DNA of 64,000 bases. Origin: a virus. Its lineage: Duplodnaviria; Caudoviricetes. Made by a program: the position numbers and the translations under genes. The stretch spans positions 64,001 to 128,000 of IMG/VR virus record IMGVR_UViG_3300042975_000100, one strand, 5' to 3'. Numbering within the stretch: the stretch's first letter is position 1; each line of letters begins with the position of its first letter. Below are positions 3,955 through 57,736 of this stretch, piece after piece. The notes under the pieces were generated by a model. The model was not told where the DNA came from and searched no databases. It worked only from the letters and a program-made list of their open reading frames with translations.

Positions 3955-4080
3955 TGCTAATCCTCCCTTGAATAAGTTTATTAAGATGTTCAAGTAGCAT
4001 AAATTGACAAAAAAGAAAGAGGGTTTAGCGGATATAATATCTCGTACCTCTATCTTACCTTGTAAGCAGATGATAAAAAT

Positions 4081-24942: not shown

Positions 24943-25179
24943 TCAGAAATTAGGGTCTGTATATTTGATAGCGCGCATATCACCAGTGATGAGAGTACGT
25001 GCGTCGGCGAACCGAGAAGTTCTTCCCGGAGGAAGGATCTCAGTAAAATCCTTAGCAACGCCATTCACTACTACACTACCAAATTTTAGATGCGTATTAC
25101 CGAGAGCTGCTTCATTCTTTTTGATTTGCTGCATCTGCTCCCGAGAATACACAAATGTACGTTCATACATATTACTCAT
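24943..25179 (-). CDS. Hypothetical protein coupled to RNAP gene
   Basis: Start overlaps RNAP subunit stop. Confidence 0.6.
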   Translation of the reverse strand: MSNMYERTFVYSREQMQQIKKNEAALGNTHLKFGSVVVNGVAKDFTEILPPGRTSRFADARTLITGDMRAIKYTDPNF

Positions 25180-26944
25180 ACGTTATCGTCCCGCTTCCTT
25201 CAACCGGTACTTGATCAGTAGTTACAGCTTCTGGATGGAGAATCTCCATCATAGACTTGATACACTCAAGTCCTTCTTCTGCCATATGCTCACTAACCTG
25301 TGGGATATCCATTTGTCCCAATACCGATTTCTTAAAATGAATTACATCTTTCAGCCCACGCTGCTTCTTATATCCATCATAGAGTTTCTCATACTCATCT
25401 CCCCAAGTAATTGGTTCTTGGAAATCTGAAATGAAACCATTCCCATACGTTTGAAGCAGTGGAACAACACTACCGCTGATACCAGGATCGGATGGTGAAG
25501 AAGCATCAGGGTCAAGTACACCCATATTGCTTACATCAAGATACCGATAAATCTTTGGAATGGATTTACCGCTAGTCTCTCCGATACCGCTTTCTCCCTT
25601 ATAAGTACATTTAAGGGCAACGATAGAATCCATGTCAGTGACGGTGTTTCTAAATGTGATCAACTGAGATCTAGATACTGCACTAACAAGGAACATCGGA
25701 TTCGTAATGAGAGATTTCCGGATAGACCGAATATCTGCTCTAGGATTATCCGACAGATTATAGATACCATATGCCAAACGATTACCATACATAGCGCCAA
25801 TATAATCAGCGATATTGATACGTTTGGTTCTGATATTCAGATTATCTTTCAGCTTCAAGTTGCTGAATTCGTTCAGTACCCATTGCAGGATTCTGAACAC
25901 ATCGCGTTTATACTCTTCAGGTAATCTGATATTGTCTCTTGTATCGATGCTATATACCCCTCTCAATGAGGTGAGTACATTGCATCCTTTCATATACTTA
26001 TCAGCTGTAAGCGAACTTGTATATGCATTACCCAGACGCATCTTCCAGAAGACATCTGAGAAGATATCCTGAATGGTAAGGTCTTTGATACAAGTTTGTG
26101 TGCAAAGCATATTGATTACATGCTGAACAACAGCATTGCCATCGAAGATCTGCTTCGGAACACAGAAAAACAGCTTGATGCTGTCTTTGATCTCTCCACG
26201 ATACTGTGGCTGGAATGAATAGAATATATTCTCATCCAGTGGAGTTTCAGATGGGATTACTACCTGACTGAGTCCAAAGAACTCAAGAGCATTGTAGAAT
26301 CCATACTGAGCAAATACATACAGCGATGCCGATGTGCATTTGCTAAATGCCATACAATCATATTGTGTAGCATCATGCTCTTCACCTTTATAGTCATAGA
26401 GCTTCACAATGTTTCTGAAGATACGAATAGGGTGGAACATGGTTTTCAAAGTCACACAATGCGAATCAGATTTACTGGTTGCATTGTTATAGGTACTTCC
26501 ATCAACGATTTGATACATAGAGCTGCAGTAATTTCCATTAATATAGAAATAGAACTTGTCCACTACCCGTGGGACAGCTATAATGACATCAATCTCTTCA
26601 TGCTGATCTTTGATCTCGATATAGTACGTGACTATAAGAAGTTTCAAAGCTGACTGTTTCAAATCGATAAAGTTATATCGATTATCTTCGTCAGACCGTG
26701 ACTTAGAAGACTTCTTCCGATTAAGCATCTCTTGATACTTACGGAGAGTCTCATTTACTTCGAAGAAGCTATCTACAACTCTAAAATTCTTAACCAGAAT
26801 CTTAAAGTTTGTTTCTCTCTGACAAGAGAGGATGATTTTCTTCAATACTTTGATGATCTCTTCATCGGAGCGGCTGAATAACTTTGCATTGAACCGATAG
26901 GTTGTCTTTTCTGCAAAGTCATGAATAAACTGTTTCTGATTCAA
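25172..26944 (-). CDS. Phage multisubunit RNA polymerase beta-like subunit, N-terminal half (probably non-virion RNAP)
   Basis: VPRVVDKFYFYINGNY..MYQIVD and YRYLDVSNMGVLDPDASSPSDPGISG correspond to beta regions (FIING..., H.GR.CP..T..G..G). Confidence 0.8.
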   Translation of the reverse strand: MNQKQFIHDFAEKTTYRFNAKLFSRSDEEIIKVLKKIILSCQRETNFKILVKNFRVVDSFFEVNETLRKYQEMLNRKKSSKSRSDEDNRYNFIDLKQSALKLLIVTYYIEIKDQHEEIDVIIAVPRVVDKFYFYINGNYCSSMYQIVDGSTYNNATSKSDSHCVTLKTMFHPIRIFRNIVKLYDYKGEEHDATQYDCMAFSKCTSASLYVFAQYGFYNALEFFGLSQVVIPSETPLDENIFYSFQPQYRGEIKDSIKLFFCVPKQIFDGNAVVQHVINMLCTQTCIKDLTIQDIFSDVFWKMRLGNAYTSSLTADKYMKGCNVLTSLRGVYSIDTRDNIRLPEEYKRDVFRILQWVLNEFSNLKLKDNLNIRTKRINIADYIGAMYGNRLAYGIYNLSDNPRADIRSIRKSLITNPMFLVSAVSRSQLITFRNTVTDMDSIVALKCTYKGESGIGETSGKSIPKIYRYLDVSNMGVLDPDASSPSDPGISGSVVPLLQTYGNGFISDFQEPITWGDEYEKLYDGYKKQRGLKDVIHFKKSVLGQMDIPQVSEHMAEEGLECIKSMMEILHPEAVTTDQVPVEGSGTITYE

Positions 26945-27609
26945 TCAGATTCCTCCCCATCTTCACCTGATGCGGCATTAGGTGCGGTGATCCTTGTCTT
27001 CAGCACTTTGTTCATTGGATTCACGCATCCAGGTTTATCTGTAATGGTGATATCAACGTCCAAATCATATGCTGTAGCAAGACTTGTGAGTTTCTTGAGT
27101 GTGATACCCTTATTCTTCTTAGACGTAATAAGACGCATGCAGTTACTAAAGTCACTGCCGAGTCTCTGTCTGTAAGATTCAGGATCGATAGCCTTTGCTC
27201 CTAATGCTTCTTTGATAAGCTTAAGAGCAGGCGAATCATTAGGATCTATGTACGGCTCAAGCACATTATCCTTCGTAGTAAGACGAGCTGTCTCGTCATT
27301 TGCCAACTGATCCTTTTTCTTGATCAGTTCAGCATAAGATTTTGAATCGCTGAAATTGATAACTCTATCTTCAGAGTAATCTTTCATACGCTCCTCTGGC
27401 GGTTTCGTATATACAGACATGCAACCTGCATCTACAACACCGGGAAGACCTTCGGTAAATCTAGGTCTAATAGGATAAACAATCCCGTCTTTAGCAACAC
27501 ATGTGTTTTCAAACATTGGCTCATTGAATTGCTTACGGCGGATATATTCATCTTCAGATATGACATCCATAGTTGTATTATTGATAAATACCTGTCTAAT
27601 ATCGTCCAA
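26941..27609 (-). CDS. Hypothetical protein with C-terminal HTH-like segment
   Basis: GITLKKLTSLATAYDLDVDI resembles an XRE-type HTH end. Confidence 0.55.
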   Translation of the reverse strand: MDDIRQVFINNTTMDVISEDEYIRRKQFNEPMFENTCVAKDGIVYPIRPRFTEGLPGVVDAGCMSVYTKPPEERMKDYSEDRVINFSDSKSYAELIKKKDQLANDETARLTTKDNVLEPYIDPNDSPALKLIKEALGAKAIDPESYRQRLGSDFSNCMRLITSKKNKGITLKKLTSLATAYDLDVDITITDKPGCVNPMNKVLKTRITAPNAASGEDGEESD

Positions 27610-27709
27610 TTAGATTCCTCCTAAAAAAATCAATCTGCAAGGTTTTTTATTAAAAAAATACAGGAGAGGAAGATTGCTCTTCCTCTCTTATATTTTTACA
27701 TAACCTTAC

Positions 27710-28327
27710 TTAAGCTGCTGCTTCAGCTTTCTCATTGACTTTATCATCCTTGACATGCTGCTTCAGAACTTCCATCGGCGTGATCGTGATATAGACCTTC
27801 TCGCCATCATGCTCTGCCGTAGCTTTGAAGAAGTCATCATATACCAATACCGGATCGATATCGACATTGTTGATCATATAAGTCTTGATTGCTTCTGCAC
27901 ATGCACACAGGATATCGCAGAGGAAATCCTTGCCATTTACAGTCTCAAGGCAAATGCCATAATTGTTCAGGCCAAAATCAGCCAGCATATAATGGAAAAC
28001 CTGGTCGCTCAAGCCAGCAATGTTTTCCTTCGGAATGTCTTTCATATCTTCTTCGTTGAACGTGAAAGTCAGGGAGAAGCTATCCCCATCTTCGCTTTCA
28101 TTGCTCTCAACGTACGCACCAAAGTAGAATGCGTCATTCTGGAAATCACGGATCTGACAACCCATCGTCTGACCCTTTTTCTTTACAACTCCGAGGTATT
28201 TCGCAACGCCCTCAAAGAGCATGCGAACGCAACGCCAGGAGAAACGAACGTCCCAGGTGCAGCTCTTTTCCTCGTCCATAATTTTCATAATCTGTGCATC
28301 AATGTTCGTGTCTTTGTACTGTTTCAT
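27710..28327 (-). CDS. Hypothetical acidic protein
   Basis: Likely start MKQYK after AAGGAG; strongly biased codons. Confidence 0.65.
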   Translation of the reverse strand: MKQYKDTNIDAQIMKIMDEEKSCTWDVRFSWRCVRMLFEGVAKYLGVVKKKGQTMGCQIRDFQNDAFYFGAYVESNESEDGDSFSLTFTFNEEDMKDIPKENIAGLSDQVFHYMLADFGLNNYGICLETVNGKDFLCDILCACAEAIKTYMINNVDIDPVLVYDDFFKATAEHDGEKVYITITPMEVLKQHVKDDKVNEKAEAAA

Positions 28328-28447
28328 GTCGTAAACACTCCTTAAATGAATTAGAATTTGATTCAAGACATCATAAGATATCTTGCCTTCACCTATATGA
28401 TATATAGTTATTCTTAAGTTTACCACCCGTTAATTTTTTACAAGCGG

Positions 28448-30772
28448 TTAGAACCCTGCCGGCCTCGGCATAGATTCCCACAGAACTTCTGGAGTAACTA
28501 TTCTACAGGTCTTTGTATTGATCTTGGAAAGCTTGCTGGATTGAAATCCTACGTATGGAACTACAAGGATATCTGTCTTCTTAGTGACACCTTTCTCTCC
28601 AGATGCATCGAACGTTCCAAGAGCGTTCAATGCCTCGACCAATTTAGAGTCTCTGCAGCCAGTAAATCGTACAATGACTTTGGCTGTATAATCTCCATAT
28701 GATCTTTGAATATTATCCATACATGCGATGGTTTTAAGATCATCCATGAACGCCTTGCGCTCATTTACAACGGTTAATGCTGCTGTTTCCCCAATACCTT
28801 TGATAGTCATCAAGGCGTTGTAAAGTTCATTCTCTTCTGCATCCATGATATACTCTAAGGATACATCCTTAAGAATAAGCTTCCATTTCTCTGCACTAAG
28901 ATTAGAGAAACCAAGCGCGCCTATTACCCGATTATCAGGATAAGGCTTTGTTTTCAGCTCTTCTACCCGTGCAAAGAATTTCTTCGTCATAACCTCACCG
29001 ATTACCGCACATGCCTTATCATAATCCAGATTGAAAAGATCACTAAACGATCTGAGATTCAATGATACTACATATGCCTCGCCAAAGTCCTTGAAGTTAA
29101 GTTTCTTAAGCATGTTAGTTACACGCTTAACCATACGTCCATCACAATCCATATTAGGACAATATGCTGTATCTCCAGTATCTGATACCATTAAGGATGT
29201 CCCACATACTGGACATACTTCAGGAAATGGAATCTTAGGTCCTTTTGGTATTGCATTCTCTGCTATATTAGGCTTGGTAAGATACACGATTACATCATGC
29301 CTATACTCAAGCTCTACAACGTCACCGATATGCAGATCCATCTGGTTAAATTTCTTAAACGAATGAATCGTAGTTTTCGGATGAATAGTACCAAAGAACT
29401 CTACTGGATTGAAATACGCCATTGGTGTGATGCTACCATCCTGTCCTACGGTGAATTCACAACCGGTAATAATGCTTCTCTTCTTCATAGCTGAGAACTT
29501 GATCGCAATAGCCCATTTGTTTACAGAGTTGATTCGTCCCAATGCCTGCTTAGCAATCGGATTAGTATACTCAATAACTACTCCATCATACATAAATGGA
29601 ATATAGGGCCTCATTGCTTCTGCTTCTTTAGCAAACTTACTTACCATATACAATCTATTCATATAATCCCCATGAATCATTGCATACCGCAAGTCTACAC
29701 CAGAGCTATAATACTTATTCAAGAAATTGATCTCTACCTCTCTATCAATTCCAAGACCTCCAGTACAGATTGGTACAAGCGTCATATAGTCTCTGAATCT
29801 TCTGGCATCATCTCTACCGGTTAACCCGATAATAGCTGTTCTACCATTTACATAAGTCATACCGGTATCCGCAGCAAGCTTATTGAGCATAGGGAATGTG
29901 ATGATGCATTCGAATTTAATACCGAATACCATCTTATCATTTATCTCTGGATAACCACAAGCTCTTTGGAATACATAGCCTCCAAAGATATGCGTCAAAT
30001 CCTGAGCCTCATCATTTCCCGTATCTCCTCTCGACCTTGCAGATACAATCTTGTTACCCTGGATCTGGGCTTCAACAGAAATACCATCATACTTCAAAGT
30101 CGCACACATATCAGGGAAGTCGAATCCCATCTGACGATGAGCCATCATAAAGTCTCTTTCAAAGATAGCTACTTTTTGTTGACTATCATTAGGATCTACT
30201 CCATGCATAACTGCATCATTGATAAGGGTAAACTTACATTTGTCAAGCGTACCAACTAACTCTGGATACTCGTGTGCAACCGCTCTGCCCTTTTTGTTAG
30301 GCTTATCATAGTGCTGTACATCTTGTACTTCGAAGTCGCTAGCACGAACGTTAAATGTATTCCCAGTGATATTCTTGAAGAAGAATCCATCCGTATCAGC
30401 TAAATGCATAGCTGTAACCTTTCCAGTTACATGCTGTTCATAGCTGTCAGGACCTGCAGCCTTTCTCTGCGGGAATACTACCGGTGTTGCTCCTACAGGA
30501 GACATACCACCCGTAACTTTGTTATACTTCGTTACGGCTAAATCATACACTCCATCTTCTAATGGAAGCATAGTTCGATCTGTATTATTGTACAGGATAT
30601 TTGAGATAACCAGTACATCATACATATCTTTTGTCATTTGTTCCGTTGGCTCTGAATTTATAAAATTCATAGTCAATTCATTAAGGTAAGAACTTAGCTG
30701 AGGAGTAATCATCCGTAAAGATGCTTTCTCTAAATCAGCTATAACCTCCTTAAGATTTATATTCACTTTCAT
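28448..30772 (-). CDS. ligA: NAD-dependent DNA ligase
   Basis: KYDG adenylation motif, SRGD, DGVVI, AIAIKF, OB domain, CPVC..C..C zinc finger, HhH, BRCT. Confidence 0.93.
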   Translation of the reverse strand: MKVNINLKEVIADLEKASLRMITPQLSSYLNELTMNFINSEPTEQMTKDMYDVLVISNILYNNTDRTMLPLEDGVYDLAVTKYNKVTGGMSPVGATPVVFPQRKAAGPDSYEQHVTGKVTAMHLADTDGFFFKNITGNTFNVRASDFEVQDVQHYDKPNKKGRAVAHEYPELVGTLDKCKFTLINDAVMHGVDPNDSQQKVAIFERDFMMAHRQMGFDFPDMCATLKYDGISVEAQIQGNKIVSARSRGDTGNDEAQDLTHIFGGYVFQRACGYPEINDKMVFGIKFECIITFPMLNKLAADTGMTYVNGRTAIIGLTGRDDARRFRDYMTLVPICTGGLGIDREVEINFLNKYYSSGVDLRYAMIHGDYMNRLYMVSKFAKEAEAMRPYIPFMYDGVVIEYTNPIAKQALGRINSVNKWAIAIKFSAMKKRSIITGCEFTVGQDGSITPMAYFNPVEFFGTIHPKTTIHSFKKFNQMDLHIGDVVELEYRHDVIVYLTKPNIAENAIPKGPKIPFPEVCPVCGTSLMVSDTGDTAYCPNMDCDGRMVKRVTNMLKKLNFKDFGEAYVVSLNLRSFSDLFNLDYDKACAVIGEVMTKKFFARVEELKTKPYPDNRVIGALGFSNLSAEKWKLILKDVSLEYIMDAEENELYNALMTIKGIGETAALTVVNERKAFMDDLKTIACMDNIQRSYGDYTAKVIVRFTGCRDSKLVEALNALGTFDASGEKGVTKKTDILVVPYVGFQSSKLSKINTKTCRIVTPEVLWESMPRPAGF

Positions 30773-30839
30773 CACCTCATGAATATAATATATACTTGCA
30801 AAAAATAATAGAGGGCTGATTATACAGCCCTCCATATTT

Positions 30840-33374
30840 TTATTCCTTATCCAGGTTCCCCTTCAATGGGAGATTAGGATTAACGAGCCTCATTACACGT
30901 TCTTTGATTACTCTCTGCTTACGAACTGGCACCTCGGAGTTGATAAGCTTAGTTACATCCTTAGTTGTAAGCTCTCCAATCATCTCCTTGATAGCTTCCT
31001 TCTCACGAAGGTCATCCATGATATGAGTAATTTCAGAAGCATTCTTCATAATCTCTTCGGAATGAAGAACCTCATGCCGAATATCTTCTGGGAATGAATT
31101 GATTACCATTGCAGTGCGTGGATCTACAAGAGTCATAGCTCTCATCTTATTACGAGAACCAGATTTCTTATGATCAATCCTCTTCTTTGCAAGCTCTTTG
31201 ATCTTATCTTTCAGTCGTGGATCTACAAGAGTCATTGCTACACACTTTCTCCGATTATCAATCAGAGTCATTACAACCTGCTTGACCTTGTTACGCACTT
31301 TAAGCTTTTTGATAAAGTCAAATCGTAATCCGATTTCCTTAAGATAAACATCAACCTTCTCTACTTGTCGAGAAGTAGCATCATGAGGAATACGTACATT
31401 GCGCTGGAATGGATCACCAACCAAAAGTGTTTCGAACATACGTCTACCCTGTGGAGATGCAGACAGAAGCATCAATGTTTCAATCAACGTTTCTGCGTTA
31501 GAATGCATCATATCAAGAAACTCCATTTCACCAAAGCGTACTGGAGTGGTCGCATGCGCTGCTTTATGAAACTTATTTGCTTTGCTCTTTGTATTCTCGC
31601 TTCTGATATTCGTAGATGCCAGAGATACAGAAGAGAACTTCTCTTCAGCAAACTGCTTCAAACGCTGCGTATATTTCTTACCTACGATGATTTTGCGTCT
31701 AGCTTTAATCTGCCGCAATCCTCCACGGGAATTCTGTACAGTAACATAGAGATCTGACTGCTCAATCCATGGGAATGCTTCATACATCTCTCTGATCATA
31801 TCGATAGACATGCCAGAAGACATCGGAGGCATACACATATAGATTGCTCCATCATTGACGATAGAATCAAGATACTGTGTTCTTACATCAATTCCATTGT
31901 AATTACAGAAATCTTGATACTCTCTTGCCTGTTCCTTATTGAAGATATTCATATAAGTGAACAGCATGTTCTCGCACTGTCCGATTATACCCTGATCATC
32001 ATAAGATCCATGAGAATAAGCTTCAGTAAGAATATTACCGATGCGTTCAATGATCTTAGAGCCACCATAGGTCATCTCTGTTTCCATAGACTGACCCGGA
32101 TTTTCTCGGTTTACGATAGTGCTACTATTATAGATAGCATCTACTGGCTCAAGAATGATCTCACCACCACGATTGACCGGATACTGCGGCATTCTATCAT
32201 CTGGATAGATAGCTGATACAACGCCTTTACCGCCGTATCTATCAGTAATCTTATCTCCTACATGAATAGGGATGGTGATCATCGTAGTGATATTCAGATA
32301 GATATTGCTAAATACCTTATCGGAGATTGTCTGCTTGCCCTGAATAGTCCAGAGACACTGATAATACAGCTTCTCAGCTTCATAAGTCATCGGAACTTTC
32401 TTATCAACAAACGGCTGCATAGATTTTACGATATTAGCACAATACTCGAGCTTCATATCATAATAGTGGCTGATCTGCTGATTGTAGAGACTCGACTTGA
32501 GCTTTTCAGGATTGTTGCAAAACACATCGATATCGATAACTTTTCCTTTGAGCATGTATTTGTCATCGGAAATCATCATCTCTTTCAAATGATCACAGCT
32601 CTGCGAATACAGTGCTTCATCTTCTTTTCTTTCTCTACGTACTGCACAAAGAAATCCATTCTGAATCTCTTCACCAATATCAGGGAATGTTTTATAATGC
32701 TCATTATCTCCATACAGATTCAATAGGATATCATTATCATTGATCTGGAAAGATGTCGAATCGAACAATGGAGCATTGAATCGTTTTGCTGCTGACTCAG
32801 ATAATACGATCGGATCTTCTGTTGTGATAGCAAGAGCCATATAGATCGTAGTCAAGTTTACGCCACAGCATTTGTTATTGGCTTCATCAAATGAATTAGC
32901 CTTAACAATAGGAGTGTCTTTTGGAATTACATCTCCTACATTCACTACGTCGAGTGTATCCGTATTCATGCTGTATCCATAACTCTCTGAGATATGACGA
33001 TAATCTACCCGATTAATGATATCAAGTTTGTTATTCTTTGAATCCAGGCAGATGAGTGTGAAGTTCGCCGACTTCACGTTATAGTTCGTATTGTACTTAG
33101 GAATCTTATCGATGACGATCAGGTCCGCCTCGGCTTGCGCGAACGTAGAACTCATTGTACCAAATTGTGTTTCATACCCAGTCATAATGATTGGGGTTTC
33201 TGCACTTTGCAACTGCATGGTCTGATCAGTCTGAATACCTTGCATAATCTTTCTTGAACCAGAGTTACAGTTGTTGAACGGCTGCAGTAAACCTTTGCCT
33301 AATGCATACTCTTGTGCCGGGAGTTCATTTTCAATCTCCTGACATGTGCTCATGATATTAAGTTTTCCTGCCAT
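30840..33374 (-). CDS. Phage RNA polymerase beta-like subunit, C-terminal half (probably non-virion RNAP), with motif-rich tail
   Basis: LLQPF..NSGSRKIM..Q, GVN..EDPIV, GDKITDRYGGKG, NRENPG, Y..RLKQ, RFGEME. Confidence 0.9.
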   Translation of the reverse strand: MAGKLNIMSTCQEIENELPAQEYALGKGLLQPFNNCNSGSRKIMQGIQTDQTMQLQSAETPIIMTGYETQFGTMSSTFAQAEADLIVIDKIPKYNTNYNVKSANFTLICLDSKNNKLDIINRVDYRHISESYGYSMNTDTLDVVNVGDVIPKDTPIVKANSFDEANNKCCGVNLTTIYMALAITTEDPIVLSESAAKRFNAPLFDSTSFQINDNDILLNLYGDNEHYKTFPDIGEEIQNGFLCAVRRERKEDEALYSQSCDHLKEMMISDDKYMLKGKVIDIDVFCNNPEKLKSSLYNQQISHYYDMKLEYCANIVKSMQPFVDKKVPMTYEAEKLYYQCLWTIQGKQTISDKVFSNIYLNITTMITIPIHVGDKITDRYGGKGVVSAIYPDDRMPQYPVNRGGEIILEPVDAIYNSSTIVNRENPGQSMETEMTYGGSKIIERIGNILTEAYSHGSYDDQGIIGQCENMLFTYMNIFNKEQAREYQDFCNYNGIDVRTQYLDSIVNDGAIYMCMPPMSSGMSIDMIREMYEAFPWIEQSDLYVTVQNSRGGLRQIKARRKIIVGKKYTQRLKQFAEEKFSSVSLASTNIRSENTKSKANKFHKAAHATTPVRFGEMEFLDMMHSNAETLIETLMLLSASPQGRRMFETLLVGDPFQRNVRIPHDATSRQVEKVDVYLKEIGLRFDFIKKLKVRNKVKQVVMTLIDNRRKCVAMTLVDPRLKDKIKELAKKRIDHKKSGSRNKMRAMTLVDPRTAMVINSFPEDIRHEVLHSEEIMKNASEITHIMDDLREKEAIKEMIGELTTKDVTKLINSEVPVRKQRVIKERVMRLVNPNLPLKGNLDKE

Positions 33375-33481
33375 TAAAGAAATCCTCCTTAAACTGTTTC
33401 GACTTTCATATTTATAATATATGATCAAATAGCCATTTAGAGAAAATATGCCAGATAGAACTAAGTCTATCTGGCAATTGA

Positions 33482-34750
33482 TTAAATCTCTTCTGCGTTA
33501 TTCTCTACAGATGGTACCTGATTCATGCAGAGGTCGTACAGATTACTCATAATCTTTTTCTCCTTGGCAAAGTCTGCATTAGAAGCCTTAGGAATCTTGA
33601 CGAGTTCTTCACTAACTGCTTTATCAAACCGCATTCTGAACTCCTCATTGCTAAGATACTTGTCTTTGAAATTACCCATGGAGAACTTCACATCAGTAAA
33701 GTCGTCCACATACATTCCGACACCGCTACCCTTGATACGGTTAGTCTTCTCCTTCATGAATACAAAGGTAGAGAGTAACGGATCAAATCCAGTCACATAG
33801 TCAAAGACCATAGTAACTGCCTGATGCGGTCTAGAACTACGAGTTTTCTCAAAGTATACATCTACCATAGCACCAGCGATCTTATACTTTTCATCCTCTT
33901 TGAGCTTCTTGTTATCAACAAAACGCATGATGGTATTGGATAACAAAACGAGCGTATCTCCACGAGGAAGTCTCTCATCTGGAGACAAGAACGGAAGCTG
34001 ACTACGCTTATGCATCATCGGATTAGCATTGATCTGCTGCATGATATGGTTTACAGCAAATACAATGATATTAGCAGATTTGATCATTGGAATGATCGTA
34101 CGAAGAATCTGCGTAACAACCTTTGCAGCAGCCGTCGTACTCATCTGCCCAGACAACTCTTCTTCCGATGCATACTTCTCAGGCATCAGCATAGCAATAG
34201 AGTCGATGATATAGATGGTAGGTTCAAACTCGATAATTGGATTTCCGAAGTTATCAAGCTTACCAGTATCATACTGATACTTTTCAGGATTCTCGAGCTT
34301 CATATCATGAATCTCTTTAATACGGCGATAGAAATTCTCTGCCGTAATACCACGATCTCGTGAGATTATACGTTCTTTAAGCGTCTCCTCTGGCACTCCT
34401 ACTACATTCGAGATACGAGGCCAATCGATTCCTGCCTCTGTATTATCTGCGAAGATAGAAGCATTCTCGAATGGTGCGATCATATTCCATGCGAACTGCC
34501 ACATACCGGTGGTTTTACCGCTCTGAGATCTACCAATAACGGAGTTGAAACTTCCGTTGGTGATACCTACAGAGAAGTAGTTGAAATCCATTCCTTTTTC
34601 TGTATTCTTTACATGAACGATCTGTCCATTAGTAAAGTCAAGAACCGGAAAACCGGTTGGATATCCGACATACGTCTGCGCTTCACGTTGCATATCGATA
34701 TCTTTATCTTTGAGCATCTTTTCTCTAAACTGTGTTGCAAGTAATGACAT
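33482..34750 (-). CDS. recA: RecA/UvsX-like recombinase
   Basis: GRSQSGKTT Walker A, IIDSIA Walker B, VNHI, KTR. Confidence 0.8.
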   Translation of the reverse strand: MSLLATQFREKMLKDKDIDMQREAQTYVGYPTGFPVLDFTNGQIVHVKNTEKGMDFNYFSVGITNGSFNSVIGRSQSGKTTGMWQFAWNMIAPFENASIFADNTEAGIDWPRISNVVGVPEETLKERIISRDRGITAENFYRRIKEIHDMKLENPEKYQYDTGKLDNFGNPIIEFEPTIYIIDSIAMLMPEKYASEEELSGQMSTTAAAKVVTQILRTIIPMIKSANIIVFAVNHIMQQINANPMMHKRSQLPFLSPDERLPRGDTLVLLSNTIMRFVDNKKLKEDEKYKIAGAMVDVYFEKTRSSRPHQAVTMVFDYVTGFDPLLSTFVFMKEKTNRIKGSGVGMYVDDFTDVKFSMGNFKDKYLSNEEFRMRFDKAVSEELVKIPKASNADFAKEKKIMSNLYDLCMNQVPSVENNAEEI

Positions 34751-34837
34751 ATTCTTATCCCTCCATACTGTGGTTAATTAGAAGTTAAAGGTCGAGTAAA
34801 AAAAAAATAAAGAGGAGGGAAATTCCCTCCTCGATAT

Positions 34838-35734
34838 TTATGGTAACACTACAGGTTCATCAAAGCCCTCAAGCTGCTCAACCAATACCGGAATCTTACG
34901 AAACAGATTGATCGGTAAGTTATGGAAACTGAACTTTGTATATCTACTGTCGAATCCGAATTCCATTCCAAATTGTTCCGAAATAGACATCAGATACTGA
35001 GTGATATTCTGAGCAGGGATGGATTCCAAGATGAACAATACAGCCCATCCAATATTCTCATCCACCTCAATCATATCCTTAGTTACCCAATACTCATCAG
35101 CATCGATCGCTTTCTTTATTTCAGTATCGAAAACTGTTGCCGATAAGAGATTAGATAAGACGTTATGATACAAAGCTCCATAGATATCCACGAATTTCTG
35201 TACAGTATAGAACTTAGGGGATGGAGCACTGAATGTAGTCAATGCGAAGTTCACTCTCCTAATGTTCAATGTCATATCCTGGCTAGACGTATTGCATAAG
35301 CCGGCATAAATAGCCGTACTAGGTTCTACACCTTTGCCAAGAAGCTGATTAACCGTATACCGATTCAACGTTTCTGCCAAGATATACATTAACTTTTTCT
35401 TATAATCTGTCAATGTAGCCGTACTCAGCATTTCGTACAGAATAGAATTGCATGTGATAAGCTCACTACAATCAAGCTGGACTTCATGACAGACCTGCTG
35501 CAATGCTGTCAGAAACTTAACGTGCTGGAATGCGAATTTGTATTCCTTAGTTTCAAACAGGTTGTGGACATTCTTCTCCACAAATTCATAAGCAGCTTTA
35601 TCCTCCATGGATTCGATATTGCGAAGACCACGCATGATATCGTTTTTCATCTCGTATTCATTCGGAAACTTCGGAAGGATTTCTTCTTTCTTAGCTTCTT
35701 CTGGCCTTACGATTTGATCAAGCTTATCCAACAT
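34838..35734 (-). CDS. Hypothetical protein downstream of the tubulin gene
   Basis: 298-aa ORF, GGAGG RBS. Confidence 0.65.
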   Translation of the reverse strand: MLDKLDQIVRPEEAKKEEILPKFPNEYEMKNDIMRGLRNIESMEDKAAYEFVEKNVHNLFETKEYKFAFQHVKFLTALQQVCHEVQLDCSELITCNSILYEMLSTATLTDYKKKLMYILAETLNRYTVNQLLGKGVEPSTAIYAGLCNTSSQDMTLNIRRVNFALTTFSAPSPKFYTVQKFVDIYGALYHNVLSNLLSATVFDTEIKKAIDADEYWVTKDMIEVDENIGWAVLFILESIPAQNITQYLMSISEQFGMEFGFDSRYTKFSFHNLPINLFRKIPVLVEQLEGFDEPVVLP

Positions 35735-35746
35735 ACAAATTCCTCC

Positions 35747-36934
35747 TTAGTAATTATCCTTTGCGGAAGGAGTCCTTACTGTAATATTCTGGGCCGTACC
35801 AGAAGCCGTCTTTACCGGCTCTACCTTCTGCACTTTCGCAAAGAACATGTTACGCTTCTTCGCAATGTCTTCCGGAGAGCTCTGCGGACGCTTCATATCG
35901 AAACTGCCAACATTCGTATCGAAGCTTTTACGGAAGAAGTCATCATTACCCTTATTGACTTTCTCAATACGAGCCATGAATTCATTGTAAACTTCTTCGA
36001 TCTCCTCTACTGGCATATCAAGTCCGGATACAACGACAAACAGCTCTTCGTCATCGAATACATCCTCTACATGCGTAAAGAATTCGATCGTCTCGCCAAA
36101 GCGCTGCTTCAGCACATCAAAGCTCCAATCGATTGCATCTTTGGTCTTATTCTTGATATTGAGAATAACACCAATACGCTGGCAGGATGCCGTAACATCC
36201 AGAGACTTAGAGTTATCAAGTCCCTCAGAGAGAACCTTATTGAAATCCTTCGGATTCTTGATCTTTCCGAGTTTGATATTCTCAATCGTCATGAAGCCGG
36301 CAGTAGTCGTCAGCTTCAGAAGATCTGTATCATCGATGTTCTGCTCTACAGACTCAACGATGTTCTTACCGATCAACGTACGAACTCTCATGGAGAACTC
36401 GTCATTTGCCATTTCCTGAGCTTTGAGTTTATTTCCAAAGCTATCATCCAGGAACTTCTTATTGGAGATTGCCTCTACCATGAACTCCGGAGAGAGTTCC
36501 TTGAACCAATCTACCGTGTTTTTCAATCCACGGGCATCATCTTCGAAGCCAGTGAATCCAAAGAGATGTACGTCAACTCCAAGAATCTCTTTGAAGTATT
36601 TTGCCATCACTACGGACATTCCAGAACCAGTACCGCCTTCAGTGCTTGTAGCAATGATGACGAACTTATCCTGCTCAGTCATGATCGTATCCAGTGAGAT
36701 TGCATTGTTGCGAAGGGAATCCATGATCATCTCATTTGCGATTCCACGCTCTTTACCACAACCCTGGAACTTACCCTGCACCTGGATTGCAATGTCCTTA
36801 TATTCCGTCGGCACATCTTTCAATGTGCTATTGAGGAGAATGATATCATCACGCGATACCACCTGATCCTCTACCAGTTTAATAGCAGCCTTATTACCTG
36901 CTGCTCCAACACCAATAACCTTTACACTTAACAT
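35747..36934 (-). CDS. FtsZ/tubulin-family GTPase (PhuZ/TubZ-like)
   Basis: VIGVGAAGNKAA, GCGKER, EGGTGSG signature, T7-like NIDDTD. Confidence 0.88.
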   Translation of the reverse strand: MLSVKVIGVGAAGNKAAIKLVEDQVVSRDDIILLNSTLKDVPTEYKDIAIQVQGKFQGCGKERGIANEMIMDSLRNNAISLDTIMTEQDKFVIIATSTEGGTGSGMSVVMAKYFKEILGVDVHLFGFTGFEDDARGLKNTVDWFKELSPEFMVEAISNKKFLDDSFGNKLKAQEMANDEFSMRVRTLIGKNIVESVEQNIDDTDLLKLTTTAGFMTIENIKLGKIKNPKDFNKVLSEGLDNSKSLDVTASCQRIGVILNIKNKTKDAIDWSFDVLKQRFGETIEFFTHVEDVFDDEELFVVVSGLDMPVEEIEEVYNEFMARIEKVNKGNDDFFRKSFDTNVGSFDMKRPQSSPEDIAKKRNMFFAKVQKVEPVKTASGTAQNITVRTPSAKDNY

Positions 36935-37058
36935 TGTTTGTTTCCTCCTTCATATTCATAAACCTACTAGTTTGGATATGATTACTAATAGGTTGTAGAC
37001 TAAGTACAAAATTAGTGGAGAAGGGAATTAACCCTTCTCCGCTATTTTAACTACAGCC

Positions 37059-37793
37059 TTACAGCATCTGGGTAGATGCACAAGCAATCTTTTCGATGTT
37101 TCCCTCCCAACTCGGGTCCGTGGCATAATTAGCAGCTTGCATCTGCTCTAGCGTTCTATAACCATGGTCATAGAAATTACGCTTAATCCAATGAGCACCT
37201 GCAATTATACCTTCATCTACTGAATCTCCCATTGAATATGCCCGGTTCGGGTTATTATCAACGGCATTGATCCCGTAGTAGTTATGACGATCTTGCGCCA
37301 TTTCTGAATTTCCCCATGAGCTTTCCAAGGCGGCATGAGCCATCAGATAAATAGGGTTAAGCCCTGTCTCCTTAGCAGCCTCGACGAACGTGGCACCTTT
37401 ACCCTTAAAACGAGTCCCGTTTTTCATATGGGTAGACCACTTGTCGATGATATCGTCCATATCTTTTGCGCTAAGTTCAATATTCGCCCCCAGATCAGTC
37501 TGGCGGTCGAATCCCTTTTGCACCAAATTGTTCACCGCAACCTGATGTCTTTTTTCTTTCTCGAGTCTCTGTTGCTCGAGTTTTTGCAGTTCTTCCTGCT
37601 GGGATTTGATTTCCTCAAGGTTATTGAGGATCTGTTTTTCCGCTTTGTCCCGTTCTTCCAGTTGCTGTTCGATGTTGTACATTCTATCATTGGTCTGCTG
37701 AATTTTAACAGACGTAAAGAAGGATGCTACTACCACCAGAACCAGCATCACTGCGATAATTCCCCACTCTTTCTTGTTGAAAACTTTACTCAT
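37059..37793 (-). CDS. Membrane-anchored GH73 glucosaminidase (peptidoglycan hydrolase)
   Basis: N-terminal TM + coiled coil; AHAALESSWG, NYYGINA, YATDPSW. Confidence 0.85.
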   Translation of the reverse strand: MSKVFNKKEWGIIAVMLVLVVVASFFTSVKIQQTNDRMYNIEQQLEERDKAEKQILNNLEEIKSQQEELQKLEQQRLEKEKRHQVAVNNLVQKGFDRQTDLGANIELSAKDMDDIIDKWSTHMKNGTRFKGKGATFVEAAKETGLNPIYLMAHAALESSWGNSEMAQDRHNYYGINAVDNNPNRAYSMGDSVDEGIIAGAHWIKRNFYDHGYRTLEQMQAANYATDPSWEGNIEKIACASTQML

Positions 37794-37902
37794 TGACTTT
37801 TCCTCCTCAATTTTGCAACGATGAATTTAGGAGGGATAACCAATACTTCTCAGAGGTCATCCCTCTTAGTTCATTTCGCTACTTTTGATTCGAGATAACG
37901 GC

Positions 37903-38049
37903 TTACTTTTTCTGGCCGTTTTCTTCTTTCTTGCGGCGCTCTTCGTCGCTTTTCAAAGTAGCCTGATCCTGCTTTCCAAGTACGTCAAATCCAAGGCCGA
38001 GATCACCGGTCTCATGGATAACTCCATACTGTCCATTCTGCTCAGGCAT
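37903..38049 (-). CDS. Small hypothetical protein (MPEQNGQY...)
   Basis: GGAGG RBS and AACT-N6-TA motif upstream. Confidence 0.55.
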   Translation of the reverse strand: MPEQNGQYGVIHETGDLGLGFDVLGKQDQATLKSDEERRKKEENGQKK

Positions 38050-38176
38050 AATATTTGCCTCCTTTCGATAGTTGATTATTGGGTAGTTGTTAAGGAAATC
38101 AATTCCTAATGCTACCCAACTCAATACTATAATATATTATTATTTTAGATAATAGAGCAAAATGGAGTTGATTCAC

Positions 38177-38440
38177 TTACGACTTGATGAATCGTAAGCT
38201 CAATAACGGAGTTATATCGGTTACAAGAGAATCGATATTCTTGTACAGAAACACATTGGAATCTTTGTCAAAGAGCTTTCTTTCCTCTTCAGACGTAGGG
38301 AATACAAATGCTTTACCACACATAGTACAAACATATCTTGTTGCACTATTAGGAACTACATGTCCTTTATGATCGCATGGTGCAACCCTCAGTATCTTAG
38401 AAAGACTCATATGAGCCATGTCCTTTTTTGAACAATTCAA
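38177..38440 (-). CDS. Small Cys/His protein
   Basis: CDH...CTMC. Confidence 0.55.
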   Translation of the reverse strand: MNCSKKDMAHMSLSKILRVAPCDHKGHVVPNSATRYVCTMCGKAFVFPTSEEERKLFDKDSNVFLYKNIDSLVTDITPLLSLRFIKS

Positions 38441-38505
38441 ACAATCATTCCTTTCTTAATTAAAAAGATATTCCCACTACCTGCAAGTGGTAGTGGGATA
38501 TTGTA

Positions 38506-39231
38506 TTACTGACGTTGCGTTTTACGCTCTTTGGATTTGAGTGTGCTTGGAAGATAATCTTCTTCATTAACCAGATTGCTATTAATCAATGCACCTAAGA
38601 GATACGAATTCAAAAGATTTCTTGAAAGCGAATCATCTACCGTTACATCTACATCACTCTGGCTAACCATTCCTACGGTATTGATCATACCATAGAATTC
38701 TGATTTAGCATTCATGGCATCTGCTCTATAAGTAGACAATTCTCTGATTGTCTCAGGGCAATCCATTACAGCTAAGCACTCCATCTCCCTGGAACTGGTA
38801 TTACCATTCTTATCTACATCAAGCAGCAATCCAGACTTCATATCTCGCTTACTGATATTTGTAGACATAGAATTCTTCTTAGCAATGAACTGCTTCACCT
38901 TCTTCATAGGTGAATAAATGACCAATGCTTCGTAGTTGGTACTAACCGGATCACCAGCCTTATTCTTATACAAGAATGGCATAGTAACCTTTTCCATTAA
39001 TGGAGCCTTAAGATTATCAAGAGCCTTGACGATCTGATCCATCTTTGGCTCTACCTCAAATAATCTTGTTTGGAACTTTATAGAGAAATCCTGTTTAAAG
39101 AATTCCATGAACTCTTTATCGTTCATCTTAGCAAATTTCTCTTTATAAAAATCACTGTTTTGCTCAGTTGGATCTAGAGTATCCAAGGTTTTGTAGATCA
39201 ATTCCTCGACCTGTTTCCTTGCCTTATTCAT
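38506..39231 (-). CDS. RNA polymerase beta-like C-terminal fragment (probably virion RNAP)
   Basis: KQFIAKKNSMS...RDMKSG...K...REMECL...IRELSTYRAD resembles the beta C-terminal region; GACA-N6-TA promoter. Confidence 0.7.
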   Translation of the reverse strand: MNKARKQVEELIYKTLDTLDPTEQNSDFYKEKFAKMNDKEFMEFFKQDFSIKFQTRLFEVEPKMDQIVKALDNLKAPLMEKVTMPFLYKNKAGDPVSTNYEALVIYSPMKKVKQFIAKKNSMSTNISKRDMKSGLLLDVDKNGNTSSREMECLAVMDCPETIRELSTYRADAMNAKSEFYGMINTVGMVSQSDVDVTVDDSLSRNLLNSYLLGALINSNLVNEEDYLPSTLKSKERKTQRQ

Positions 39232-39279
39232 AGCGATATCACTCCTCTTTACCCAAATGTCTCAAACAGTAATCTTTAC

Positions 39280-39654
39280 TTAACCAATGCTCGAATCACC
39301 TTCTGGTATGGTAGATCTCATAGTTTCAACTACCGGGATCTTGCCACTACCAATGCGTAAACCCATCTCCATCAACTTATTTAATGGAATCTCAATGACG
39401 TAGCAACGCGTCTTGATCTTTACATGCCCTTTCTCGAATTCTTCCAAAACATAGAATCCCTGCTTATCATGCTTCAATGTAGCACTATAAGGACGATGGC
39501 CATTGGCAGCGGCCGTCATCAATTCCATCTTTTCTTTACTGCAGAAGTAACTAACTTGATCTCTATCAAGATCAACCACTCCAACTTCTCTAGAGGAATT
39601 ACCTCCTTCAAACTTATAAGATGCCGTAATACCAATAAATAATGAGTCTAGCAT
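39280..39654 (-). CDS. Hypothetical protein (paralogue of 39671-40036)
   Basis: Shared FIGITA.YK...REV...D..G.YV. Confidence 0.6.
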   Translation of the reverse strand: MLDSLFIGITASYKFEGGNSSREVGVVDLDRDQVSYFCSKEKMELMTAAANGHRPYSATLKHDKQGFYVLEEFEKGHVKIKTRCYVIEIPLNKLMEMGLRIGSGKIPVVETMRSTIPEGDSSIG

Positions 39655-39670
39655 ATATCAACTCTCCCTT

Positions 39671-40036
39671 TTAGATTTTTGGAATAATTCCCTGCTTTAT
39701 ACTAAAATTGATCTTAGCAAGTTTAGCAGAACTAATCCGAATAACAGATCTACGATATTTTATTACTGAATCGAATTTCTCCACAACCACGTATATACCG
39801 AGTTCATCTTTTTCCACAGAAACTTTTGTATCGGTATCATTAAATCCATACATAGCCGCAATGTGTATTTGCTCTTCCCTAAAGATCTCAGCTAAACTGT
39901 TGAATGCCTCCTCTGAAATAAATAGTTTGGCGGCTTCTTCGCTGTCAATAGTAGAGCTTAATACTTCTCTATCAGTCTTTCCATCCATGGAAACTTTATA
40001 GATAGCCGTTATACCAATAAATACATCCGAATACAT
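39671..40036 (-). CDS. Hypothetical protein (paralogue of 39280-39654)
   Basis: As above. Confidence 0.6.
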   Translation of the reverse strand: MYSDVFIGITAIYKVSMDGKTDREVLSSTIDSEEAAKLFISEEAFNSLAEIFREEQIHIAAMYGFNDTDTKVSVEKDELGIYVVVEKFDSVIKYRRSVIRISSAKLAKINFSIKQGIIPKI

Positions 40037-43047: not shown

Positions 43048-43926
43048 TTACTTGATCGTAGGATGAATAGTCCAATTCACATTGGAGTATGTGAACGTTA
43101 CATCAATCCCATATTTCTTTTTAATCTCATTTACTACTCTTTGCGGAGTAGCATCGCAAACTACAACAGAATAGTTCCCATAATGGATTTTAGGCATATG
43201 GTTAAATGATGTAGGTCCATAATACTTATAGCGACCAATGCGTGGGGTAAAATAAATTCTGTCACCTTTTTCATCTATAGTGAAGCATGTATCTCCATTA
43301 ATCACAGGAGTGCCACTATCACGATATATAGCAAATGAAGATTCTGGCCATTTGGCATTTACATGGCACCCTATATTCATACCATGTTTAATGAAAAAGA
43401 GATCATCACTATTCTTAATAACTAAATCTCCATTGTCTTTAAATTCGATCTCTACTTCTTTCTTCATCTCTTTTGGCACAGGACTGCTAACTCGGTAAGA
43501 TTTTCTATCCGCTTCCCTGATAGATTCTTTTACCGATTCTTTCTCATCTTCTTCTTTCATAATGCTATCAACGAACTTAGCAGACGTACTAACAACGGAA
43601 TCGGCGAGTACGTCTGAAACCACACCAGCTGTAGTTGGTACCAATTGTGATACAGCATTATGTAATTTTGCTTTGAAGCTAAGTTTGATATCAGAATCAT
43701 TAATTTTTGAAATCATCTTGCTTGCTAATGAAGCGGCTTCATACTCGTTATCCAATCCGGATAATAAATCACATAACTCTGGCAGGGCAACCAGACGCTC
43801 TATAAATTTCCCTATCACTTCTCCGTACACATTGGTTTCTTCTTTGAGTTTCTTTACATCACCGCTGATAAAATACATACCAATTTTCATTTCCAGTTCT
43901 TGTCTTTTGTTCAACTTCATTTTCAA
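43048..43926 (-). CDS. Hypothetical protein
   Basis: 292 aa, GGGAGG RBS, long structured leader. Confidence 0.65.
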   Translation of the reverse strand: MKMKLNKRQELEMKIGMYFISGDVKKLKEETNVYGEVIGKFIERLVALPELCDLLSGLDNEYEAASLASKMISKINDSDIKLSFKAKLHNAVSQLVPTTAGVVSDVLADSVVSTSAKFVDSIMKEEDEKESVKESIREADRKSYRVSSPVPKEMKKEVEIEFKDNGDLVIKNSDDLFFIKHGMNIGCHVNAKWPESSFAIYRDSGTPVINGDTCFTIDEKGDRIYFTPRIGRYKYYGPTSFNHMPKIHYGNYSVVVCDATPQRVVNEIKKKYGIDVTFTYSNVNWTIHPTIK

Positions 43927-44111
43927 ATCCTCCCAAAAAGTTTGTTTATCAAGCTACATAATCAACATTATAGTGAGTAGATTCCCGTAGCTGCTCAATG
44001 GCATTCTGTTGTTTCAACTATTCCCTATCTACGCACTCCCGCTAGCTACCCTGGGCTAGTGGGAGTTCGGTGTGACAGATATTTATTTATACAACTTATG
44101 TCATTCATCAT

Positions 44112-44122
44112 TATAATATATA
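44112..44122 (-). promoter_or_regulatory. Putative early (virion RNAP) promoter motif TATATATTATA; representative of ~18 sites, all on the minus strand
   Basis: Sites near 4327, 7636, 15972, 28396, 30784, 33413, 38128, 41630, 41772, 44112, 46206, 46557, 47045, 49557, 52237, 55814, 57750, 59527, almost all just upstream of a minus-strand gene; resembles phiKZ/AR9 early motifs. Confidence 0.75.
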
Positions 44123-44178
44123 ACTGAAAAGACACAGTTTAACCCACTACTCATTACGAGTAGTGGGATATATTTTGT

Positions 44179-44547
44179 TTACTGCTCAGTTAAAGGACTA
44201 CCAGTCTGATAGTCATACCTGATATGAATTTCATACTCATCAGGAATCCAATTATCTATAATAGCTTCTACGTTCCTAGCTATCTCTTTAGATTCTTCAT
44301 GATTGGATACATAGAATCTAAGAGAAGCATGTTTATCATGCTTAAACTTAAGACCTAAATCCATACAGAAGAACTTTACTTTTACTCCGTCAACTAAAGC
44401 CTTCCTTGGAATATTATACATACGCACTGTCATCAATGCATTCTTAAATGGAGATTCACTAGCTCCTCTGCATTGCTTGCAAAATACTCTAGGTATACGT
44501 GAAAATACATACTTCGAAACAGTGTGTTGAAAATCTCTAGCAGCCAA
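44179..44547 (-). CDS. Hypothetical protein with CxxC
   Basis: ORF with GGGGAAG RBS. Confidence 0.55.
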   Translation of the reverse strand: MAARDFQHTVSKYVFSRIPRVFCKQCRGASESPFKNALMTVRMYNIPRKALVDGVKVKFFCMDLGLKFKHDKHASLRFYVSNHEESKEIARNVEAIIDNWIPDEYEIHIRYDYQTGSPLTEQ

Positions 44548-44621
44548 TACTAGCTTCCCCCTTGTTTGTAGTTGCTCCCCATATACGTTCTTTACGTAAA
44601 AGTTTACATAGTTTTAACTTT

Positions 44622-55739: not shown

Positions 55740-55871
55740 TTGTTGTTTCCTCCCCTTAGCTAAGGTTGTTAATTTATCCAGGATTACCAAATGGCAATCC
55801 TGAATATCACACTTATAATATATACTTACTTTTATGTTTAAGCAGTATATTTTTTGACATTTGAAAACCTA

Positions 55872-57277: not shown

Positions 57278-57736
57278 TTATTTCAAATTAAGTTCTTTGT
57301 TGTACTTCTCATCGAGTTCTTCATCCGTGATATCGTAGTTGTCTTTGATAAACGATACGAAATCTTCGAATGTGAAGTCGAATTCGGATTCCATTTTTTC
57401 ATCAAGCACATCCTGTTCCTGACAGAACCGAATAAATGTAAACGGACTCCATGCCTGACGAATCAATGCGGATTCAGAGATTACATAGCAATCATCCAAT
57501 TCCAAGTCCTGTAAATTTGCAAAGAAGAAGTCGATGACATCCCGTTTACCGGTCATCAATCTCCATTCCGTAGCAGCCGTGTTATCAGCCCATGTAATCA
57601 ATACCAAATAATGCTTTTCAGGATTAGCATTAATCACCTCTTTAGTTACTGGGTCTACGATGTGCATTACATTTTTCTTTTCTTCGATTAACATTTCAAC
57701 ACTCTCCTTATAATAGTTATTAGATTGAGTACGCAT
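57278..57736 (-). CDS. Hypothetical acidic protein carrying a VMHIVDP motif
   Basis: ORF after TATATATTATA motif. Confidence 0.6.
   Translation of the reverse strand: MRTQSNNYYKESVEMLIEEKKNVMHIVDPVTKEVINANPEKHYLVLITWADNTAATEWRLMTGKRDVIDFFFANLQDLELDDCYVISESALIRQAWSPFTFIRFCQEQDVLDEKMESEFDFTFEDFVSFIKDNYDITDEELDEKYNKELNLK

Follow-up and report, generated by a model that had tools for sequence, protein, structure and literature searches.

A short peptide tag with lineage-specific spelling on loose ends of replication and transcription proteins of an AR9-related giant phage, and a clamp-fold protein as its candidate reader

Results

The 64,000-nucleotide stretch of DNA analyzed here (the window) covers bases 64001-128000 of one 144,787-base viral record (IMGVR_UViG_3300042975_000100, hereafter G000), which belongs to an uncultured AR9-related giant phage and is estimated by CheckV to be ~58% complete. 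A short peptide, spelled for instance VMTLVDP, recurs here in proteins of replication and transcription and is further called the tag. It had been pointed out in a sequence-only reading of the window, which named copies in several proteins and supposed that they form a common docking or compartment-targeting code. Translation and coordinate mapping found every one of the named copies in its place, and the four assigned to the tail of the C-terminal half of the RNA polymerase (RNAP) beta subunit are indeed there. The carriers encoded in the window and their tags are as follows.

30840-33428, minus strand: non-virion RNAP beta, C-terminal half (RNAP beta-C), 862 residues; Pfam RNA_pol_Rpb2_6 and PHROG 3295 over residues 43-681, best cultured match AR9 gp089
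31254-31274, minus strand: tag copy 1 of the RNAP tail, VMTLIDN (translation, mapping)
31218-31238, minus strand: tag copy 2 of the RNAP tail, AMTLVDP (20 nucleotides identical to copy 3)
31119-31139, minus strand: tag copy 3 of the RNAP tail, AMTLVDP (20 nucleotides identical to copy 2)
30876-30896, minus strand: tag copy 4 of the RNAP tail, VMRLVNP (translation, mapping)
60382-62178, minus strand: divergent DnaB-like replicative helicase, 598 residues, with a ~90-residue tail; Pfam divDNAB over residues 168-509, PHROG 3213 over residues 51-506
60418-60438, minus strand: tag copy 1 of the DnaB tail, VMTLVDP (translation, mapping)
60385-60399, minus strand: tag copy 2 of DnaB, VMKLV as the last five residues before the stop (translation, mapping)
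5095-7041, minus strand: family-B DNA polymerase, N-terminal half (PolB-N; exonuclease with a portion of the palm); Pfam DNA_pol_B_exo1
5191-5211, minus strand: weak tag PLRLVDP in the PolB-N tail (orthologous tails have the local tag)
28448-30835, minus strand: NAD-dependent DNA ligase; Pfam ligase domains from residue 242
30392-30412, minus strand: weak tag AMHLADT in the ligase linker before the adenylation domain (mapping)
8702-9658, plus strand: AT-hook-like protein, 318 residues, with tag VMHLVPE at 8717-8737 (residues 6-12)
57278-57736, minus strand: 152-residue protein without assigned function, with tag VMHIVDP at 57650-57670
62234-63370, minus strand: SbcD/Mre11-like phosphoesterase, assigned from its DLHFG motif, without a family match
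63338-63358, minus strand: degenerate tag VISLANT in the SbcD-like protein (mapping)

Outside the window the same record has a tag at the C-terminus of an SF2 helicase, at the N-terminus of a 563-residue protein and in the tail of a small protein, as well as two copies in a 437-residue protein. The 152-, 563- and 437-residue proteins, the small carriers and the genes at 25172-28426 gave no family match in Pfam, PHROGs, NCBIfam and PDB sequences, among which not every library was searched with each protein.

That the copies lie beyond the recognisable folds also holds: all of them fall outside the parts that family profiles or homologues cover. For RNAP beta-C the PHROG match extends to residue 681 of 862, and for DnaB the matches extend to residues 506-509 of 598, in both cases short of the tags. 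The catalytic part of RNAP beta-C extends to approximately residue 705 and is followed by a basic tail of ~157 residues, which holds all four tags and contains 24% lysine plus arginine versus 11% in the body of the protein. AR9 gp089, annotated by its depositors as the C-terminal half of non-virion RNAP beta, stops ~20 residues past the last conserved block. The tag is a basic flank followed by a hydrophobic, strand-like core of 5 to 7 residues, placed on flexible N- or C-terminal extensions or in loops.

In G000 the synonymous codons of the tag differ from gene to gene, so selection acts on the peptide and not on the DNA. Shared DNA was registered only between RNAP copies 2 and 3, for which the previously reported 20 identical nucleotides at 31117-31136 and 31216-31235 are exact. 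They are part of a 24-nucleotide direct repeat (31117-31140 and 31216-31239, 96% identical, 99 nucleotides apart), which spans the tag with its flank and nothing more. Judging from the sequence, this suggests that the tag cassette was recently duplicated or converted within the gene.

Enrichment of the tag was estimated against within-protein shuffles (300 for G000), using an open reading frame set of 155 proteins and 43,907 residues from the full 145-kb record. The core [VA]-M-[THKR]-L-[VI] gave 11 matches in 7 proteins versus 0.39 expected, with a maximum of 3 in the 300 shuffles; with RNAP and DnaB removed, 5 matches in 5 proteins remained versus the same 0.39, an expectation still calculated for the whole proteome. 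The same count was made with the local spelling in a complete 245.7-kb relative (G001), whose DnaB is 56% identical to that of G000, and in three further complete genomes read whole (G003, G004 and G005). In G001 the I[AV]ER[VI]-type core had 17 matches in 12 proteins (0.82 expected), in G003 the PIEF type 12 in 7 (0.47), in G004 the NPFIH type 19 in 14 (0.17) and in G005 the YCPF type 19 in 14 (0.86). Enrichment over the five genomes is therefore 14- to 110-fold, and exclusion of DnaB and RNAP left 5, 11, 7, 14 and 14 matches in G000, G001, G003, G004 and G005, respectively. Of the 79 matches in the five genomes, 58 are within 45 residues of a protein end, while 20.4 would be expected (p about 1e-18).

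Examination of the relatives demonstrated that the position of the tag is kept in orthologues while its spelling is changed. The VMxLV pattern is absent from G001 but for one unrelated match, and its place is taken by IIAERVP-like peptides; NPFIH, YCPF, PIEF and LIEPMIF types were registered in other relatives. In pairwise alignments at least eight orthologue pairs of G000 and G001 have the tag at aligned positions, VMxLV-type in the former and I[AV]ER[VI]-type in the latter. Two copies in the DnaB tail of G000 correspond to three in G001, and four copies in the RNAP beta-C tail to three. The other aligned sites are the C-terminus of the SF2 helicase, the N-termini of the 563-residue, AT-hook (at the same residues) and 152-residue proteins, the PolB-N tail, an insertion in the C-terminal half of the polymerase (PolB-C) and the ligase linker.

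The weaker variants of G000 could also be judged from orthologues. PolB-N tails hold the local tag in G001, G003, G004 and G005 and, as read by eye, in most of 11 further relatives; the ligases of G001, G003 and G004 have their own tag in the same N-terminal region, and the SbcD-like proteins of G001, G004 and G005 have a clear N-terminal tag. At the level of sequence, the variants in PolB-N, ligase and the SbcD-like protein are validated by these same-position tags.

On a broader scale, 1519 DnaB homologues scored at E <= 1e-20 in public data. Tails were read among the best 120 listed, and most of those read terminate in a short hydrophobic peptide, which is present in one to three copies and spelled differently from lineage to lineage. 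When the DnaB tail was compared with termini of open reading frames in 51 non-redundant IMG/VR loci, its best 7-mer match was found in a neighbour from its own locus far more often than by chance; out of 51, the own locus took the first rank in 12 cases and one of the first three ranks in 19. For DnaB and RNAP beta-C tails of 28 genomes the mean best score was 21.0 within a genome and 16.3 between genomes, and the own genome ranked first in 8 of 28, for which 5000 permutations gave 1.29 on average and 7 at most. In most lineages read directly the local tag is present in 2-5 copies in both RNAP beta-C and the PolB-N tail. The tag is a real and widespread feature, which is under strong selection. 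No published description of such a tag was found in the jumbo-phage literature on short linear or clamp-binding motifs.

Carriers assigned by orthology form a recurrent set. The tag is present on DnaB, RNAP beta-C and PolB-N in every one of the five genomes, on PolB-C, ligase and the SF2 helicase in four, and on the SbcD-like protein in three, in addition to its degenerate copy in G000. Further recurrent carriers are the 563-residue and 243-residue families, the family of the gene at 25172-26944 and homologues of a weak NUMOD4-like protein. Neither the terminase of G001 nor that of G000 matched the local pattern, and in G000 the virion structural protein at 1639-3993 and the non-virion RNAP beta'-C half did not match it either, which argues against a capsid-packaging signal. 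The NUMOD4-like proteins, of homing-endonuclease type according to a weak Pfam match, have the local tag at their N-termini in G004 (119989-120993, plus strand) and in G005 (12110-12691, plus strand, and 93265-93936, minus strand). Their sequences leave room for the idea that selfish nucleases may copy the address tag.

Of the proteins which had been suggested as the common binder, the one named first was modelled.

4358-5098, minus strand: candidate reader of the tag, 246 residues, folded as a DNA sliding clamp (PCNA-like; AlphaFold2 model and structure search)

The start of this gene overlaps the stop of PolB-N by 4 nucleotides. Its AlphaFold2 model has pLDDT 90.6 and pTM 0.87. All top-ranked Foldseek matches are PCNA, 9-1-1 or beta clamps (probability ~1, TM-scores 0.3-0.4), and so are the best 50 matches listed by VIA, with Z of 9-10.6 over ~200 residues. 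The matches are mainly to DNA sliding clamps, and the similarity is one of fold only. Sequence searches in Pfam, PHROGs, NCBIfam and PDB, of which not every library was searched with each protein, gave no match. A positional orthologue exists in G001 (pairwise E 7e-8), and the family as a whole has 37 representatives in 1.8 billion proteins. It was found in 25 of the 32 relatives searched, always directly after the tag-bearing PolB-N tail, and was not detected in AR9, G030 and G031, in which RNAP beta-C (665-684 residues) is too short for a tail. The clamp-fold protein is among the most diverged syntenic proteins, with 22-25% identity between G000 and G001, where the median over 71 orthologue pairs is 44%. 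No fused, longer members of the family, as might be expected for intramolecular docking, were found. Prediction of a complex between the clamp-fold protein and DnaB tail residues 553-598, made without controls, scored 0.22 versus a mark of 0.32, a value that speaks neither for nor against binding. The C-terminal strand of the clamp was considered as a mimic of the tag. It resembles the tag of G001, but is conserved throughout the family and fails to track the local tag in G002-G005, and this idea was dropped for that reason.

The remaining gene content agrees with an AR9/PBS1-like phage. G000 encodes a split family-B DNA polymerase, the divergent DnaB, the NAD-ligase, gyrase-like subunits, UvsX-like and SbcC-like proteins, a Dda-like helicase and split subunits of a multisubunit RNAP, for which the AR9/PBS1 group (~30% identity) contains the nearest cultured relatives. 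RNAP beta-C is ~32% identical to AR9 gp089, the beta'-C half matches AR9 gp154, DnaB is ~30% identical to AR9 DnaB, and both polymerase halves are present. No nucleotide relatives of window positions 28000-40000 were found among deposited phage records by megablast, and an IMG/VR query for RNAP with the exact peptide words returned no relative. The polymerase is split as it is in chimalliviruses; its two genes, PolB-N at window positions 5095-7041 (minus strand) and PolB-C at record positions 43455-45116 (minus strand, outside the window), are separated by ~24 kb. At 54822-55790 (minus strand), within the replication module, a 322-residue protein is encoded with an invariant CxH...CxxC zinc motif and flanking tails rich in N/Q/G and Q/M/G/P. 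It is the protein suggested second as the common binder. It is conserved in G001, G003 and G005 and might be an SSB-like (single-stranded DNA-binding) or scaffold protein. An AlphaFold2 model from an alignment of four sequences was unusable (pLDDT 37), and a profile search against PDB sequences gave insignificant zinc-ribbon matches only. A GroEL-like chaperonin gene (PHROG 5725) is located outside the window at record positions 29025-30938 (plus strand) and is kept in G001, G003, G004 and G005. The first 140 residues of a 714-residue protein encoded at 16056-18200 (minus strand) are a dCMP deaminase, followed by a long remainder without assignment, and a dUTPase-like gene is present at 49954-50772 (minus strand); both bear on the question of uracil DNA in this relative of AR9.

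Discussion

About a dozen unrelated proteins of replication, repair and late transcription share one tag on their loose ends. The shared docking motif proposed earlier stands in so far as the tag is enriched, is located on proteins handling DNA or RNA, keeps its position in orthologues and changes its spelling in step across proteins; docking on one common partner is the best reading of it, while the beta-augmentation, multivalent recruitment and compartment or shell targeting added to that proposal are hypothetical. It is difficult to see otherwise how a dozen unrelated proteins could change one peptide jointly, and we are fairly sure for this reason that a single common reader exists. Most probably the tag is a genome-specific short linear docking motif, or address tag, with one shared phage-encoded reader, for which the clamp is the best candidate. 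This rank is given to the protein encoded at 4358-5098 because of its clamp fold, its adjacency to PolB-N, its counterpart in chimalliviruses, its divergence and its co-occurrence with the tag, all of which are circumstantial. The more definite statement, that the reader is the PCNA-like protein encoded directly after PolB-N, is tentative and may well prove wrong.

In the proposed mechanism one phage-encoded partner would read the tags of all client proteins, i.e. DnaB, both PolB halves, NAD-ligase, SF2 helicase, SbcD-like nuclease, AT-hook protein, small proteins and RNAP beta-C, and would gather them on phage DNA. As the pocket of the reader drifts, every client would have to follow, and each lineage would arrive at its own spelling. 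If the reader is the clamp, it would serve as a toolbelt similar to gp45 of T4, including a tether between replication and late transcription.

Several observations weigh against this account. The patterns counted were derived from DnaB and RNAP tails of the very genomes in which they were then counted, so that dropping these proteins is a partial correction, and the gene calls came from greedy open reading frame calling made for this analysis. No clamp-family member was detected in G015, G016 and G028, though G028 and G015 have tags; co-occurrence of the clamp with the tag and its fast evolution are confounded by phylogeny and detection limits. The clamp-loader family PF13177 was unmatched in the five genomes and matched in 14 of 14 control genomes, which makes a loaded ring doubtful; a search with PF00004 gave weak P-loop matches only, and a divergent loader may exist. 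The chimallivirus counterpart of the clamp is a monomeric polymerase subunit (PMC13648687, PMC13648698). Finally, the cores VMTLVDP, I[AV]ERV, NPFIH, YCPF and PIEF fit no clamp-binding consensus among those compared: Qxx[LIM]xx[FY][FY] of the PIP box, QL[SD]LF and the hydrophobic-acidic C-end of T4 (LDFLF type).

The reader may be another phage component, such as a scaffold or SSB-like protein or, at its surface, a compartment or condensate of replication and transcription, in which case the tag would be mainly a localisation code. The client set, replication proteins and non-virion RNAP, is what nucleus-forming phages import (PMC11087766), and a multivalent scaffold would be in keeping with several copies per chain (3-5 in RNAP; DnaB, a hexamer, has 2-3 per subunit). 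The replication module also contains the conserved zinc-motif protein with Q/M/G/N-rich low-complexity tails (54822-55790), but no link between it and the tag was found. Moreover, formation of a nucleus is not known for AR9-like phages (PMC13282480), and a search of G000 and G001 with phiKZ gp54 (chimallin) found nothing, even though a sequence search without profiles is a weak test. Altogether we consider such a code unlikely, but of the rivals it deserves attention most. Improbable is a signal of turnover or folding, that is a degron for a phage adaptor or protease or a handle for the GroEL-like chaperonin. Degrons and chaperone sites are typically terminal hydrophobic peptides with basic flanks, which the tag resembles, and the chaperonin gene is conserved in the clade. 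Tethering accords better, however, with multi-copy arrays and with tags in internal loops such as the ligase linker and the PolB-C insertion; restriction of the tag to proteins acting on DNA would be left unexplained, and spellings private to a lineage could not be driven by proteases and chaperones of the host, which are too conserved.

One can also imagine that no separate reader exists and that tags pair with each other as a beta zipper, gluing the tagged proteins together. Their beta propensity is high, the same spelling would be needed on all partners, which would also yield the covariation, and the tandem copies in the DnaB tail of G001 are set apart by proline-rich turns. Strand-strand pairing is nevertheless disfavoured by the central proline of many cores (NPFIH, YCPF, PIEF, LIEPMIF), which is typical of peptides bound by folded domains, and this possibility seems to us slightly more remote than a degron. 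Hardly credible, in turn, is the view that the copies arose by chance or from composition, or that a DNA repeat is translated in several genes. The 20 identical nucleotides of two RNAP copies speak in its favour, but it is at odds with the 14- to 110-fold enrichment in five genomes, the orthologous positions, the different codons of different genes and the covariation of DnaB and RNAP tails; the megablast search with positions 28000-40000 also found no match in deposited phage records.

The preferred reading, a docking tag with one shared reader, has its nearest precedent in phage T4, in which gp43, gp55 and gp33 bind one clamp, gp45, through interchangeable peptides at their C-termini, which couples late transcription to replication (PMC2988020; PMC7892883). 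Similar to gp45 of T4 and RB69, one short hydrophobic peptide is placed here on flexible ends of unrelated replication and late-transcription proteins, and a clamp-fold gene adjoins the polymerase gene. Differences are also essential. The tag combines a hydrophobic core with a basic flank, while the T4 peptide is hydrophobic and acidic; it is found at N-termini, C-termini or in loops of a dozen or more clients, and up to five copies are present on the phage's own multisubunit RNAP in a spelling private to the lineage. In addition, no clamp loader was found here and binding to the clamp is hypothetical.

Cellular clamps likewise serve as toolbelts, through the PIP box on PCNA and the QL[SD]LF-type motif on the bacterial beta clamp (PMC9690074). 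In common with them, terminal or loop peptides are present here on polymerases, ligase, nucleases and helicases; one clamp pocket receives them there, whereas the reader is a candidate here. Two features of a clamp client system were found: one short peptide recurs on several DNA enzymes, at flexible termini or in loops, and the genome has a clamp-fold gene, identified by fold only. In contrast to the PIP-box and beta-clamp consensuses, conserved across whole domains of life, the tag turns over between phages with 35-56% DnaB identity. What is new in comparison with known clamp motifs is above all this lineage-private spelling, turning over among fairly close relatives.

Chimalliviruses have the same split PolB and a divergent DnaB, and their Rhc, an RNase H joined to a clamp-derived domain, is the third subunit of the split polymerase and supports replication and transcription (PMC13648687, PMC13648698). 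In both cases the polymerase is accompanied by a PCNA-related protein that probably forms no ring, but here the clamp-fold protein is the product of a separate gene for 200-300 residues after PolB-N, and RNase H is a separate gene as well. The papers on Rhc describe a large domain-domain interface and do not mention a shared peptide tag (PMC13648687, PMC13648698). In G001 a stand-alone RNase H gene for 231 residues (locus L014, 4103-4798, plus strand) is located apart from the clamp-fold gene, whereas chimalliviruses fuse both as Rhc; RNase H was not found in the incomplete G000 record.

Phage T7 offers one more comparison. The acidic, Phe-tipped C-terminal tails of its gp4 helicase and gp2.5 SSB dock on the gp5 polymerase, and the helicase tails hold spare partners. 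As in T7, where the binding site is single, different replisome proteins share a tail motif, but T7 tails are acidic, strictly C-terminal, have few clients and no link to RNAP. An acidic run with an aromatic C-terminal end was not found in the tag, its flanks being basic and its copies occurring also at N-termini and in loops. AR9, without an RNAP tail and without a detected clamp-family gene, may use a different docking logic, and in the absence of this tail the published AR9 structures do not bear on the tag. The DnaB-like helicase of AR9 (locus L097, 3583-5268, plus strand) has a tail ending in GIPF, which is similar to the IPF tip of bacterial SSB tails.

Conclusions

A wider view, which we regard as a long shot, can be outlined. 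A lineage-private address code would admit proteins to the assembly of replication and late transcription, be it a factory, a condensate or clamp-coated DNA, in a large, presumably chimallin-lacking clade of uncultured jumbo phages. Rapid turnover of the code together with its reader would insulate this machinery from co-infecting relatives and host proteins, and selfish elements, as exemplified by the tagged NUMOD4/HNH-like endonuclease homologues of G004 and G005, would copy the code to reach replicating DNA.

If the docking tag and its shared reader are real, the phages of this clade would represent a natural series of matched peptide-reader pairs for studying the co-evolution of a hub with its clients, and potentially a source of orthogonal tethering parts. 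The tag would also give a sequence-readable list of the replication and late-transcription machinery, including several proteins of no assigned function, across a large clade of uncultured jumbo phages from the gut and the environment. Phages described so far as clamp-less would then have a hidden clamp-like subunit, and they would couple their own multisubunit RNAP to the replisome, as T4 couples the host polymerase to gp45.

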